Source: Schaalia odontolytica (GTDB taxonomy: Bacteria > Actinomycetota > Actinomycetes > Actinomycetales > Actinomycetaceae). Taken from it: a DNA stretch of 32,000 nt. The notes under the pieces are model-generated. The model was not told the origin of the DNA and made no database searches. It worked only from the letters and a program-made list of their open reading frames with translations. Every line of letters begins with the position of its first letter. The first letter of the stretch is position 1. The stretch lies in the NCBI RefSeq assembly GCF_005696695.1, contig NZ_CP040006.1, positions 120,001 to 152,000 of the forward strand, in the 5' to 3' direction. Below are positions 4,998 through 8,559 of this stretch, piece after piece. The translations under genes and the position numbers were made by a program.

Positions 4998-5028
4998 TGC
5001 GTTTCGTGGACGAGGTCACCTCGGTGGG
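4998..5028 (+). repeat. 31-bp direct repeat, copy at the nrdF-proximal end of the islet
   Basis: TGCGTTTCGTGGACGAGGTCACCTCGGTGGG matches 9918-9948 at 30 of 31 positions (hand alignment; the mismatch is 5003 versus 9923). It contains the stop codon (TCA at 5016-5018 on the + strand) of the 5016..5426 gene. Confidence 0.85.
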
Positions 5029-5426
5029 TCGGATCCTTCTTCGTCGACGTCGATCGGATCGCCGTTCTCATCCAACATGCCGTGGCGCTTCATGTACTGG
5101 TACCGAGCGTCGGCCCAGCGGGGAACGGGTAAGGGAAAGAAATGATAGATGGCAGCGATAAGAAAACAGAGTAGACCGGCGACGATGAGGATACCCGTGA
5201 CGATGTAATAAGAACTGAGGTCGTAAATAGCTTCTCCGAGGCTGCAGATGAAGAAGCCAAGGCCGACAAGTGGGCGTGTTGTTGCTTGGCTTCTCGCGCT
5301 GCTGCTCATCCGCGAGGTGATAATGCGGGAGTTGCTAGAGAAAGTGGTATCGAGATAGGTCTCCATGTACCAGGCACCAATAATCATGAGCCCGAAAATC
5401 GCACCACAGACTTCCCAGAAAATCAT
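5016..5426 (-). CDS. Small 3-TM membrane protein, paralogue 4 of the putative immunity family (C-terminus diverges at the islet boundary)
   Basis: 136 aa, beginning [34 protein letters not shown] lies upstream of ATG 5426. The conserved tail is [27 protein letters not shown], after which it ends [12 protein letters not shown] inside the direct repeat. Confidence 0.8.
5056..5123 (-). repeat. Conserved 3' gene module, copy in paralogue 4 (truncated, 68 bp)
   Basis: GGATCGCCGTTCTC...CCCAGCGGGG aligns with 5496-5589, 5983-6076 and 8166-8259. Confidence 0.8.
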
Positions 5427-5484
5427 GACTGCGAACCTCCACTGTTAATGCTTGCTGCGACTTCGCCGTTGAGTCCAGTGCTCA

Positions 5485-5889
5485 TTAATCTTCTTCCTCC
5501 GAAAGCTCGAACTGCGGGAGGGGATCGCCGTTCTCGTCCAGCATTCTGTGGCGCTTCATGTACTGGTACCGAGGGTCTATCCATCGGGGTACGGGTATCG
5601 GTGAAAAATACCAGACAACACCGATGATGAAAATTGCCAAAGTTATTGCAATAAGTGTCAGTTGGACAAACTGCGGAAATCTTCCATCATTGCCGATTGT
5701 CACGAAGCTGCCGACCAGAAATGCACTTCCTGTTGCAAGGGTGCCGATTGATTGGTACTTGTCATTCATGCGTGTTGCTGAGCTAATGAAGCGCGCATTC
5801 TGGCCAAATTGCGAATCCGTATAAGTCTCGCAATACCACATAGCTAGAATTGCGAGGCTAAACGGTATGCCGATGATTCCCCAAATCAT
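5485..5889 (-). CDS. Small 3-TM membrane protein, paralogue 3 of the putative immunity family
   Basis: The ORF track extends to 6015, overlapping the upstream gene. ATG 5889 (GGAGGTGG upstream) gives MIWGIIGIPFSLAILAMWYCETYTDSQFGQNARF..., aligning with the N-termini of the other paralogues. The tail is [38 protein letters not shown]. Confidence 0.8.
   Translation of the reverse strand: MIWGIIGIPFSLAILAMWYCETYTDSQFGQNARFISSATRMNDKYQSIGTLATGSAFLVGSFVTIGNDGRFPQFVQLTLIAITLAIFIIGVVWYFSPIPVPRWIDPRYQYMKRHRMLDENGDPLPQFELSEEED
5496..5589 (-). repeat. Conserved 94-bp 3' gene module, copy in paralogue 3
   Basis: 6 mismatches in 94 against 8166-8259 by hand alignment. The rest of the gene is strongly diverged. 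Confidence 0.85.
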
Positions 5890-5968
5890 GAGGGTTGTCC
5901 ACCTCCGTGTATAGCGGAATAAGTAGCACTGTTGATGCCTGTTTTGACTTCTCGGTCGAATCCACTGC

Positions 5969-6524: not shown

Positions 6525-6541
6525 TGTCGTGGACGAGGTCA
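6525..6541 (+). repeat. Third, partial (17-bp) copy of the islet boundary repeat
   Basis: TGTCGTGGACGAGGTCA is identical to 9922-9938. As at 5016-5018, its TCA (6539-6541) is the stop codon of the minus-strand gene ending here. Confidence 0.7.
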
Positions 6542-6910
6542 GCTTGATGAGGAGGGGGTCACGGCTGTGATCTGCGTGTTCCCCGTCGGAACAGGGGCCG
6601 TGTACTTGTGGTTGTATTCGTCGTTGTAGCGTTGGATCTCGCGCATGACGTCCGCCACCGCGTCGTCCGTGCACTTGAAGTCCTCTGTTGCGGCCGCTAG
6701 GCCCAAGTAGATGCCGTTCAGGATCCACGCCATGTGGTTGAGTGTTGAGTTCAGAGCCGTGACGTGTTTGCTCAGAGTTGCATCGTGTTCGCTGCCCGTG
6801 TCGGATGTACTGAGGGCTGGCGTCTTCCTGAGTTCTGCGCACGCGTTGCTGAGCTTCGCAATGATCGAATTAACTTCGTCGTAATTCCATTCGAGAACGA
6901 CGTAAGTCAT
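6539..6910 (-). CDS. Small helical protein, possibly WXG100/ESAT-6-like (secretion-associated); function unknown
   Basis: The ORF track starts at 6961. ATG 6910 (GAGAGGAAA upstream) overlaps the upstream stop as ATGA. The ~123-aa product MTYVVLEWNYDEVNSIIAKLSNACAELRK...LGLAAATEDFKCTDDAVADVMREIQRY looks like a two-helix hairpin. No clean W-x-G motif is present. Confidence 0.6.
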   Translation of the reverse strand: MTYVVLEWNYDEVNSIIAKLSNACAELRKTPALSTSDTGSEHDATLSKHVTALNSTLNHMAWILNGIYLGLAAATEDFKCTDDAVADVMREIQRYNDEYNHKYTAPVPTGNTQITAVTPSSSS

Positions 6911-7596
6911 GGCAGTTTCCTCTCGGGTGAAAGGGCGAAGAGATACGTGATGAGTGCCCACAGCTGCGTGTTGTAGATGGGGTGGATGGGGATGTGAGGT
7001 CCGGTGCTGGGTGCGAAAAGCGGAGCCTCGACCCTGTAGGCGGCGGCTGGCGTGATGAACGTGGAGAGGGTAGAGGTCGGAACGAAGGAGCCCTTCTTCG
7101 TGCGCTCTTCCCGGATCCAGGTGGTGTATGCCCAGCGTTGGGCCACGAGAGCCTGCGCGAAGGCGGAATCTGAGGGGCCGTAGGAGGAGTAATTCTCGAG
7201 GAGCTGGGCCGTCTGTTCGGTCGTGCCTTGCTGTGCGGCGTACACGATGGCCGTCGGTAGCACGGGAGGTCCATCGAAGACGGCGGGGTTAGGCGTGAGC
7301 GGAGATATCGCCGCCGTGACGTGGGGAATTTCCTCGTTATCGATCTGATAAATGTGAGTCTCAGTGTCGCCGTCGGGGGTGGTAGCGGTGCGGGCGACGA
7401 CGCAGGGCCCCGCCTGCATCCAGATGAGAGCCTGGCGGCACTGGGAAGCATCCGGAGACGTGGTGGCGATGACCAATCGCGAGCGAGCCGTGCGCATGAG
7501 AGCCGCGAGATGGTCCGCGTCGCCGGTGAGTCCCTCGGAGGTGGCGAAGCTTGAGGTGACATCACCCGGAATGATGATGTGAGGACGGTCAGGCAT
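6907..7596 (-). CDS. Hypothetical cytoplasmic protein (229 aa); EspG-like secretion chaperone is a speculative assignment
   Basis: ATG 7596 has GGAGG 6 nt upstream. It overlaps the upstream gene end by 8 nt and the downstream gene by ATGA. No signal peptide or TM segment. The family was not recognised with confidence. Confidence 0.65.
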   Translation of the reverse strand: MPDRPHIIIPGDVTSSFATSEGLTGDADHLAALMRTARSRLVIATTSPDASQCRQALIWMQAGPCVVARTATTPDGDTETHIYQIDNEEIPHVTAAISPLTPNPAVFDGPPVLPTAIVYAAQQGTTEQTAQLLENYSSYGPSDSAFAQALVAQRWAYTTWIREERTKKGSFVPTSTLSTFITPAAAYRVEAPLFAPSTGPHIPIHPIYNTQLWALITYLFALSPERKLP

Positions 7597-8122
7597 TGCG
7601 CACCTCCAGGCTCATGATGATCGCGAGAACGTCATCGTTCAGGTCGCCGAAAGCGGGTGTCGTCATCGTCGCAGTCGCCGTGAGGAGGAAGTCATTCCCG
7701 CCGTCGGAATGAATCCACGCCCACTGGCAGGCGGTGATGGGGACGCTGCCCTGAATGTAGATTCCCGTGCGCAGGTGTGAAGATTCGGGTCGCGCCGGCC
7801 ACTCGCAATCCTCCAGCATGCGAAAGCCGGGAACCTGATCGGACATGGACTGTGCCGAGTCGGCGAGCGCCTGCGCGGGCGTCGTGCTCGCGGGGATAGG
7901 GGAGGCAAGCACGAGGAGGGTGGGGGTGAAATCGTAATCGGCATCGATGGGGCCGACGGCGAGGGCGATAACGCCACCTTCGGCCGGATGCTGATCGCTG
8001 TCTGGCGTTCGCTCTTGCGCGTCGCCGGCGCTCCCGAATGCCTGGTTGAGGATCGAGGAGATCTCCTCCTTCGGGCACGACGACCAGCGGGGAGGCATCA
8101 GCCAATAGGTCGACAGACTCAT
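7589..8122 (-). CDS. Hypothetical cytoplasmic protein (~177 aa); possible adaptor/chaperone (alpha/beta sandwich pattern)
   Basis: The ORF track starts at 8134. ATG 8122 overlaps the paralogue 1 stop as ATGA and has GGGGGA upstream. The C-terminal pattern GFRMLE...RTGIYIQGSVPITACQWAWIH...FLLTATATMTTPAFGDLNDDVLAIIMSLEV is reminiscent of DUF1795/LpqN-like folds (weak, by eye). Confidence 0.6.
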   Translation of the reverse strand: MSLSTYWLMPPRWSSCPKEEISSILNQAFGSAGDAQERTPDSDQHPAEGGVIALAVGPIDADYDFTPTLLVLASPIPASTTPAQALADSAQSMSDQVPGFRMLEDCEWPARPESSHLRTGIYIQGSVPITACQWAWIHSDGGNDFLLTATATMTTPAFGDLNDDVLAIIMSLEVRNA

Positions 8123-8559
8123 GGTGTCCCCCATCCCTGATCGTTGTCAGCGGACTCCTCGTCGTCCTCCGAAAGCTCGAACTGCGGGAGGGGATCGCCG
8201 TTCTCGTCCAGCATTCCGTGGCGCTTCATGTACTGGTACCGAGCGTCGGCCCAGCGGGGAATAGGCAATGGAGAAAAACGCCAGATCAGAGAAATGAGTA
8301 TGACAAGCAAGGTGAGGATAAGTAGAGAGTTGATAACGAGGTTTGGCAATTTAAGCTCGTTGCATATGATGACGATGGCTGCAAAAATGAATACGACTCC
8401 TGTTGCGGGGAATCCGATGGCATCTGACTTAGGATGTGCGTGAAAGGTTGTGCTAATAAAGCGTGAATTCTTCCCGTATGACGTATCCGTGAAGGTCTGA
8501 ATGTACCATGTCGCTAAAATAACTGTTCCGAATAGAAGGGCAAGTATTCCCAATAACAT
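8119..8559 (-). CDS. Small 3-TM membrane protein, paralogue 1; putative cognate immunity protein
   Basis: 146 aa, beginning MLLGILALLFGTVILATWYIQTFTDTSYGKNSRF. ATG 8559 lies 2 nt after the toxin stop, and its GGAGGA RBS is formed by the last codons of the toxin gene. The tail is [39 protein letters not shown]. Confidence 0.8.
   Translation of the reverse strand: MLLGILALLFGTVILATWYIQTFTDTSYGKNSRFISTTFHAHPKSDAIGFPATGVVFIFAAIVIICNELKLPNLVINSLLILTLLVILISLIWRFSPLPIPRWADARYQYMKRHGMLDENGDPLPQFELSEDDEESADNDQGWGTP
8166..8259 (-). repeat. Conserved 94-bp 3' gene module, copy in paralogue 1
   Basis: CCTCCGAAAGCTCGAACTGCGGGAGGGGATCGCCGTTCTCGTCCAGCAT...CCCAGCGGGG is shared with the three other paralogues. 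Confidence 0.85.

Follow-up and report, generated by a model that had tools for sequence, protein, structure and literature searches.

Four paralogous genes for proteins with three transmembrane (3-TM) helices lie on the minus strand of a 32,000-nucleotide (nt) stretch of the Schaalia odontolytica chromosome (NZ_CP040006.1, positions 120,001 to 152,000), called the window below. They raise the question of how neighbouring genes with strongly diverged bodies come to end in almost the same tail. From a comparison with related loci we conclude, with a probability of roughly three in four, that the window holds a polymorphic toxin-immunity locus of the Schaalia / Actinomyces odontolyticus group, with an orphan immunity array and recombining cassettes. 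The minus-strand gene order is a 395-amino-acid (aa) protein, the putative toxin, followed by P1, g181, g229, g122, P2, P3, P4 and nrdF, where P1-P4 are the 3-TM genes. The first five genes form a tight operon with overlaps of 4 bases between P1 and g181, 8 bases between g181 and g229, and 4 bases between g229 and g122. The genes that carry the argument are as follows.

8562-9749, minus strand: putative polymorphic toxin, 395 aa, with a conserved, mostly helical N-terminal part of ~320 aa, a glycine zipper at aa 324-377 and a type-A-specific end of ~22 aa (SATGSYLADLANNGIHTAIHGG)
8119-8559, minus strand: P1, type-A 3-TM gene adjoining the toxin gene, with a 'long' C-terminal extension; its stop codon overlaps the g181 start (ATGA)
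8191-8265, minus strand: constant tail of P1, 25 codons (PIPRW...GDP), with a near-invariant core at 8191-8238
5969-6391, minus strand: P2, type-B orphan 3-TM gene, with a 'mid' extension (LPQFELSEEEDS); tail 6008-6082, core 6008-6055
5485-5889, minus strand: P3, type-C orphan 3-TM gene, with a 'mid' extension; tail 5521-5595, core 5521-5568
5016-5426, minus strand: P4, type-D orphan 3-TM gene in the last position, adjoining nrdF, with a 'last' extension; tail 5055-5129, core 5055-5102

Four genes with a common tail

The open reading frames (ORFs) of the four genes lie where a preliminary description of the window had placed them (8119-8559, 5969-6394, 5485-5889 and 5016-5426); the start of P2 is more likely at 6391 (MSYLW...), matching the start in homologues. 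The protein alignment of P1-P4 contains the N-terminal motif W-Y-x-E/Q-T-Y/F-x-D and the invariant tail (PIPRW...GDP) that had been described, with bodies at 42-50% identity, and the four-copy family was recovered independently by a repeat search of the window. The mismatch counts over a 94-nt 3' module were reproduced (5/94 for 5983-6076 and 6/94 for 5496-5589, each against 8166-8259), and P2 and P3 differ from each other at 11/94 positions. The module is GC-rich, as had been reported: the GC content rises from 0.43-0.50 over the bodies to 0.57-0.63 from the tail onward, and between bodies and tails the GC content at third codon positions (GC3) goes from 0.48-0.61 to 0.76-0.84. Hydropathy and the positive-inside rule predict an N-terminus outside the cell, with loop 1 and the tail in the cytoplasm.

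Two features of this first picture had to be redrawn. The near-identity of the 94-nt module holds for P1, P2 and P3; P4 has only a 75-nt tail, without the LPQFELSE stretch that is common to the other three with few synonymous changes. The module is indeed conserved but composite: about 30 nt travel with the body type, the following 45-48 nt form a shared core, and LPQFELSE belongs to a position-specific framework. Nor are the bodies hypervariable. They represent discrete, old allelic types, with a proportion of synonymous differences (pS) of 0.73-0.88 between types, i.e. at saturation; strains compared within a type have pS 0.07-0.28 in five of the types and 0.53 in type B. By the Nei-Gojobori method, the bodies in the window have pS 0.73-0.88 and a nonsynonymous distance (dN) of 0.5-0.9, and the 25 tail codons have pS 0.26-0.50 and dN 0-0.09. 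The tail is thus under strong constraint as protein, has diverged less than the bodies, and is no fresh conversion tract.

The 3-TM proteins match nothing in Pfam or NCBIfam, in agreement with the earlier failure to recognise the family. All 232 word-index matches are unnamed or 'hypothetical' proteins from Actinomyces, and the family is small, with 81 representatives among 1.84 billion proteins. Three plus-strand ORFs opposite the tails (8144-8443, 5895-6320 and 5558-5824) were rejected as genes, being mirror images of the conserved tail.

Body types are paired with toxin ends

The comparison set consisted of 63 loci and the window, 64 in total, with 137 family genes, of which 130 are complete and the rest are fragments. 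Six main body clusters (E, 33 genes; C, 31; D, 25; A, 15; B, 14; B', 9) comprise 127 of the 130 complete genes, and the remaining three are singletons. Bodies of the same type are ~90% identical between strains, and those of different types are saturated. The toxin has 248 homologues at 78-97% identity, with the divergence concentrated in the last ~70 aa. Its zipper consists of overlapping (G/A/S)xxxGxxxG units that run continuously over aa 324-377, and produces a weak, sub-threshold match to the Pfam family Gly-zipper_Omp (E 0.018). The zipper core GGPVGILAGGIIGGVVGG is constant across all toxin classes; the last 20-25 residues fall into about six discrete classes.

In 54/54 classified pairs, the C-terminal class of the toxin and the type of the 3-TM gene that follows agree, which bears out the linkage to a toxin gene assumed in the preliminary description. 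In the window a toxin end of class A is paired with P1 of type A, and this pairing suggests that P1 is the cognate immunity protein of the adjoining toxin. Types B, C and D, represented in the window by P2, P3 and P4, adjoin the toxin gene in other strains.

The tail as a 3' switch point

Body type and post-tail sequence assort independently across strains, as expected from the recombination between cassettes that had been suggested for these genes. The extension after GDP tracks the position in the locus, not the body type: it reads LPQFELSEDDEESADNDQGWGTP at the toxin-adjoining position, LPQFELSEEEDS/L at internal positions, and IDxDEEGSNPPR at the last position before nrdF. We used ungapped, in-register identities, since the background of the gapped comparison was too high (0.74 for unrelated bodies). 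The identity of the last 60 nt of the body is 0.90 for the same type and 0.42 for different types, and that of the 36 nt after the tail is 0.89 for the same position class and 0.25 for different classes, with the tail in between at 0.84-0.93 whatever the grouping. For instance, P1 and a type-A gene in the last position (locus L007) have identities of 0.98 in the body, 0.97 in the tail and 0.19 after it; the values for P1 and a type-D gene with the 'long' extension adjoining the toxin gene (L013) are 0.48, 0.93 and 1.00, respectively.

A site-by-site association profile of 101 distinct 180-nt regions has the same form. Up to tail nt 29 the sites follow the body type (U 0.68-0.79), nt 30-74 are almost monomorphic, and beyond nt 75 the sites follow the position class (U about 0.5). 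In the pairwise homoplasy index (PHI) test for recombination, the observed value was reached in 0/1000 permutations. The key mosaic pattern also holds in isolate genomes and the window, where types A, B, C and D each occur in two position classes; the mosaic is therefore no artefact of metagenome assembly.

Codon usage and composition change at the same boundary. Where different types share an amino acid, their codons agree as well at 80% of positions in the core and at 35% in the body. The codons of the invariant body residues T, D and R differ by type (R is encoded by CGC, CGA, CGA, CGT, CGC and AGA), and in 13/15 core columns all six types have a single major codon. The tail has a GC3 of 0.80, like the framework genes with 0.74-0.79, against 0.53 for the bodies and 0.43-0.48 for the zipper and end of the toxin; by composition, the tail belongs with the constant framework and the cassette does not. 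Because the core of 45-48 nt is nearly monomorphic and has the same codons in all types, we regard it as the 3' crossover zone for cassette exchange.

Gene conversion within the genome, the other process that had been proposed, finds no support. Pooled over all pairs, the tail-core pS is 0.334 within the same locus and 0.332 between different loci; averaging over distinct haplotypes inflates the diversity of such short segments. The value of 0.33 is alike for same-type and different-type pairs and is close to the framework diversity (0.19 for g181, 0.24 for g229 and 0.34 for the toxin N-terminal domain). Since tail-core pS is equal by type and by locus, the core behaves as one freely recombining population-level segment, without additional homogenisation within the genome.

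Orphan cassettes and toxin remnants

Upstream of each of P2, P3 and P4 lies a short remnant of a toxin gene:

6410-6445, minus strand: type-B toxin 3'-end stub upstream of P2 (...ASRFNETFLS), 36 nt, 92% identical to the main toxin gene of locus L021
5885-5943, minus strand: type-C toxin 3'-end stub (VKTGINSATYSAIHGGGQPS*), 59 nt, 100% identical to the 3' end of the intact toxin gene of locus L009; its last bases overlap the P3 start
5421-5446, minus strand: type-D toxin 3'-end stub (...INSGGSQS*), 26 nt, 92% identical; overlaps the P4 start

Overall, 67/89 orphan genes have a stub of the cognate toxin end in the 30 nt upstream, including all three orphans of the window. Five type-A genes are preceded instead by a type-C stub with the first codons of C, and so are 5' chimeras. 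Four loci (L001, L002, L027 and L029) contain a complete silent type-A unit inside the orphan array, consisting of the zipper core, the toxin end and the immunity gene, which is 94% identical to the expressed toxin end of the window. P2, P3 and P4 are thus putative orphan immunity genes of types B, C and D, displaced cassettes that have kept the 3'-end stubs of their own toxins. Growth of the array by tandem cassette duplication, as previously proposed, does not agree with these data: neighbours in the array are synonymously saturated, and each is ~90% identical to the same type elsewhere and has its own cognate toxin stub.

Conservation of the tail as protein

The tail could also be conserved at the RNA level. 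This was rejected, as there is no Rfam match in positions 4800-10000 and the four tail regions fold like shuffled sequences (z from +0.1 to +1.1). Distant members of the family retain the tail motif [WY]Q[YW]xKRHG[LF][IL]DxNG. Five of them (289-319 aa) are fusions of a 3-TM part, the tail and a domain similar to g181; the matches to g181 include P0286 (E 2e-19) and P0256 (E 3e-12). The earlier suggestion of strong selection on a docking motif is plausible and agrees with the data: the tail is kept as protein in distant relatives, some of which are fused to a g181-like domain.

In one distant lineage (locus L065, 3606-6665, and also L064) we observed two genes with a 3-TM-DUF1795 fusion, together with a homologue of g229 and a stand-alone glycine-zipper ORF of 65 aa (5595-5792). 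In L065, one of the fused genes directly follows this ORF, close to the g229 homologue. No full-length toxin gene is visible on the L065 contig, and the short ORF may represent an orphaned toxin end or else encode a small peptide resembling a bacteriocin.

Proposed explanation

The unit of variation is ~0.4 kb long, consists of the toxin end and the immunity body, and has a low GC3. It is flanked by two constant framework-like segments, the toxin zipper core and the 25-codon cytoplasmic tail of the immunity protein. By analogy, the glycine zipper of the toxin would insert into membranes and depolarise them; the variable TM body of the immunity protein would recognise the variable toxin end inside the membrane; and P2, P3 and P4 may give protection from the toxins of other strains. 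By homologous recombination within the 45-48 nt tail core, body types have repeatedly been linked to any position (toxin-adjoining, internal or last before nrdF), and gain and loss of cassettes probably have the same cause. The mixing takes place at the population level, between strains, and not by ongoing conversion within the genome. Likely, the tail is kept constant since every immunity variant must work with the single DUF1795/Eag-like partner g181, as the natural fusions suggest.

Rather unlikely, in our view, is that the orphan array also serves as a store of silent specificity cassettes, from which a double crossover at both constant arms would transfer copies to the expression site. 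The source would be complete units (zipper core, toxin end, immunity body and tail) such as those of L001, L002, L027 and L029. If so, a lineage could switch the toxin that it fires and keep the old immunity, in analogy to pilin or VlsE cassette switching, and the constant tail would double as a recombination arm and as a docking site for the DUF1795-like partner.

Several observations weigh against the toxin-immunity explanation with recombining cassettes. Toxicity of the 395-aa protein, immunity and the secretion route are predictions from the locus. The N-terminal ~320 aa of the toxin have no Pfam or NCBIfam match, no LXG domain (PF04740) and no sequence match in PDB, and the AlphaFold2 model is poor (predicted local distance difference test score (pLDDT) 47, from a 22-sequence alignment), with no Foldseek match at E < 0.1. 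No genes of a secretion system, whether of type VII (T7SS) or another, are present in the window. Many comparison loci are metagenome contigs or metagenome-assembled genomes (MAGs), and the repeated tail could yield chimeric assemblies. Body type and position are partly associated (Cramer's V 0.40), so some arrangements are inherited as blocks. The tail-core pS is not low in absolute terms, and very strong codon bias could be part of the cause of codon sharing in the core. The docking role is deduced from the fusions, and the fused relative P0286 has no tail motif.

Alternative explanations

Three alternatives keep the family but explain the shared tail differently. Each gene may have evolved as a unit, without recombination, the tails being alike as an essential protein motif. 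The excess of pS over dN in the tail (0.26-0.50 against 0-0.09) and the persistence of the motif in distant relatives agree with this account, and the mosaic pattern contradicts it, given the independent assortment of body type and downstream sequence and the PHI result. Purely protein-level constraint would also leave unexplained why core residues share codons across types while invariant body residues have type-specific ones, and why GC3 rises from 0.53 to 0.80 inside single genes; we consider it very unlikely. Hardly different in probability is concerted evolution, in which ongoing gene conversion between tandem copies homogenises the tails of each genome. Tandem copies with a shared block, and the few synonymous changes in LPQFELSE of P1, P2 and P3, are what it predicts. 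However, tail cores are no more alike within a locus than between loci, tail polymorphisms are uncoupled from both locus and type, and the present data contain no copy-to-copy transfer of tracts between closely related strain pairs. A recent tandem duplication in situ, followed by accelerated or targeted diversification of the bodies, would account for the array layout and for the junction sequence shared by P2/P3 and P3/P4. We give it almost no weight: bodies are synonymously saturated between types and yet ~90% conserved per type across strains and species-level genomes, each orphan has the stub of a different, cognate toxin, the locus contains no diversity-generating machinery, and a recent origin on the spot is refuted by the presence of these types in other strains.

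The remaining alternative denies a role in competition. The zipper protein and the 3-TM proteins could form a lineage-specific envelope or cell-division complex, encoded near the fhaA-pknB cluster. The locus has a fixed place on the chromosome with housekeeping genes on either side, no genes for secretion lie close to it, and toxicity is only deduced, all of which would suit such a complex. It would not be expected to have discrete allelic types with a 'toxin' end that co-varies perfectly with its partner, a number of spare copies that ranges from 0 to 5, degenerate loci, an isolate that keeps the 3-TM genes with the toxin gene disrupted by a probable insertion sequence (IS) element, or so few relatives (81 representatives). 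We therefore regard an envelope complex as improbable and prefer the toxin-immunity locus with recombining cassettes.

Framework genes and the surroundings of the operon

The three remaining genes of the operon form the conserved framework of the locus:

7589-8122, minus strand: g181, soluble protein of 177 aa from M5, present in all loci, with a predicted PsbP/Mog1/DUF1795 (Eag-like) fold
6907-7596, minus strand: g229, conserved framework gene; its reading frame overlaps both operon neighbours
6539-6910, minus strand: g122, small framework protein of 123 aa from M18, last gene of the five-gene operon

When the proteins of the cassettes and of the framework were all scanned against Pfam and NCBIfam, no match exceeded the threshold. 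The AlphaFold2 model of g181 has a pLDDT of 81.7. In Foldseek it is matched by Mtc28 and LpqN with template modelling scores of 0.67-0.68, by EagT6-Tse6 with scores of 0.54-0.60 (E 5e-5 to 1e-3), and also by SciW, DcrB and PsbP; one source labels a g181 homologue DUF1795. At the sequence level g181 has no match to Pfam PF08786 and only a weak one to Lpp-LpqN (E 0.09), and it has no type VI secretion system (T6SS) context. For g229 and g122, searches of PDB sequences gave nothing meaningful and Pfam and NCBIfam gave no match. As a guess, from its residue pattern and the gene arrangement described for S. odontolytica Esx substrates (PMC13622651), g122 might be a helical WXG100-like partner. Two other relations were rejected: g181 and g229 have no detectable relation as paralogues, and g122 as a fragment of the toxin N-terminus was ruled out. 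No intrinsic terminators were found between the array genes, and promoter-like matches were unconvincing.

Upstream of the toxin gene in most loci, and divergent from it, is a gene for a 322-aa tetratricopeptide repeat (TPR) protein with C-terminal TM segments (9964-10932, plus strand, in the window). In locus L001 a second copy of it, 63% identical, lies after the orphan array and before nrdF. The first ~40 codons of ORF 3931-5019, which overlap the end of P4, are probably outside nrdF proper. An 898-aa surface protein is encoded further on (1108-3804, plus strand), with a weak match to the SpaH/EbpB subfamily of LPXTG-anchored pilins, below the curated cut-off, and a match to the choice-of-anchor K domain; it appears unrelated to the cassette locus.

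Variation among related loci

The locus is syntenic across the Schaalia / Pauljensenia / Actinomyces odontolyticus group, always between an alpha/beta-hydrolase gene and nrdF-fhaA-pknB, with 0 to 5 spare 3-TM copies per locus. In an isolate of Schaalia sp. ORNL0103 (L018, 5282-7958) an insertion of ~1.4 kb splits the toxin gene. It encodes a 436-aa protein that looks like a transposase of the ISL3 type, as judged by eye from the sequence alone. The type-E and type-B 3-TM genes of this isolate are intact, so the strain may have lost the toxin and kept immunity. A metagenome contig (L026, OBWS01004157.1) has the arrangement toxin-A[mid]-C-D-nrdF and lacks g181, g229, g122 and the B cassette, which could result from a deletion via tail-tail crossover or from an assembly chimera across the repeat.

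Tandem pairs of 3-TM genes directly follow the toxin gene in six loci (L032, L035, L036, L038, L045 and L058), one of which (L038) has a second toxin-end fragment between the two genes. The rare body types F, G and H were found only in such pairs, which look like intermediates of cassette insertion. A degenerate locus is present in one MAG region (L021 and L063): the toxin-adjoining 3-TM gene has a frameshifted extension, g181 is split, and the array is reduced to type-E and type-D fragments. In another metagenome contig (L025, BNJV01000169.1) P1 is 100% identical to that of the window and the arrangement A | B, C, D is the same; its toxin and nrdF matches are in several pieces, and frameshifts or assembly errors are possible.

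Comparison with known systems

By analogy, the closest functional counterpart of the locus is EsxX of Staphylococcus aureus ST398, a glycine-zipper depolarising toxin of T7SSb (PMC12744356). Soluble ExiAB neutralises EsxX in the producer by binding the zipper in the cytoplasm, and polytopic ExiCD, which also occur as orphans, neutralise it from outside (PMC12744356); TelE/TipE of Streptococcus gallolyticus is a related system (PMC10434224). Both EsxX and the present toxin have an extended C-terminal zipper, polytopic membrane immunity proteins that are also found as orphans, and soluble proteins encoded once beside the toxin. The present locus differs in having no LXG domain and no sequence similarity to EsxX. 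Its immunity protein has 3 TM helices, not 6 as in ExiCD (DUF5079/5080), and its soluble partner has a DUF1795/PsbP-like fold by Foldseek, with no Pfam match to DUF5085, the ExiAB family. Moreover, specificity resides in only 20-25 C-terminal residues and about six discrete types. In an actinobacterial host the 395-aa protein would be secreted by T7SSa at best. An Esx system is active in S. odontolytica, and its candidate substrates are encoded at distal sites (PMC13622651); in a keyword check of the main text of that paper, the present locus was not mentioned.

Recombination at homology blocks of tandem T7SS immunity genes was described for the esaG and tipC arrays, in which segments have different phylogenies and copies are gained or lost (Garrett et al. 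2022, PMC9484751). Here, too, strings of non-identical paralogues have nucleotide-level homology blocks, including one at the 3' end, where they recombine, and as in S. aureus esaG three unrelated genes separate the first copy from the rest of the array. In contrast to the soluble DUF600/TipC proteins, the immunity protein is a membrane protein of an unrelated family; no Pfam match to EsaG (DUF600), TipC or TsaI was found, and the 3-TM family is analogous, not homologous, to these. A single 3' block dominates, and the zipper core of the toxin serves as the other arm. The bodies differ as whole cassettes, not as mosaics built from several variable regions, and what follows the block depends on position.

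The orphans also resemble the orphan immunity arrays of the Vibrio cholerae T6SS, formed by effector displacement and carrying effector remnants (PMC5361080), and the orphan C-terminal (CT)/immunity modules of contact-dependent growth inhibition (CDI) and Rhs systems (PMC3150448, PMC3967940). In all of them, orphans match cognate immunity genes of other strains and are preceded by 3'-end remnants of the displaced effector, and the complete silent modules are homologous to the expressed toxin gene in their 5' part. Unlike those systems, the present one has a defined 3' homology arm inside the immunity gene, so that exchange is possible by ordinary double crossover instead of homology-facilitated illegitimate recombination, and three framework genes stand between the expression site and the orphans. 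Eag chaperones of T6SS effectors (EagT6, SciW) shield the TM helices of the effector (PMC7773334). As predicted from its model, g181 has a similar fold, and its gene likewise neighbours that of a protein whose hydrophobic helical segment would need to be kept soluble before export. In contrast to Eag proteins, g181 occurs in a Gram-positive host without T6SS, has no PF08786 match, and has its best structural matches in mycobacterial LpqN and Mtc28.

Thus, the kind of system, recombining T7SS-type immunity arrays, is already known, and the protein family is previously undescribed. The general picture of polymorphic toxin systems is unchanged by this locus. Antibacterial toxins of actinobacterial commensals, and of the Esx/T7SSa world generally, are only now being found. 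Schaalia odontolytica is a common oral and gut colonist and a model host for Saccharibacteria, and strain exclusion by the locus could therefore shape which strains co-exist. With about six toxin ends of 20-25 residues, each matched by a TM immunity body of 100 residues, the locus represents a compact natural specificity code that is easily tested by swaps. It is also an unusually clean example of the reshuffling of strain-level toxin and immunity repertoires, because the unit of exchange is bounded by two constant arms.

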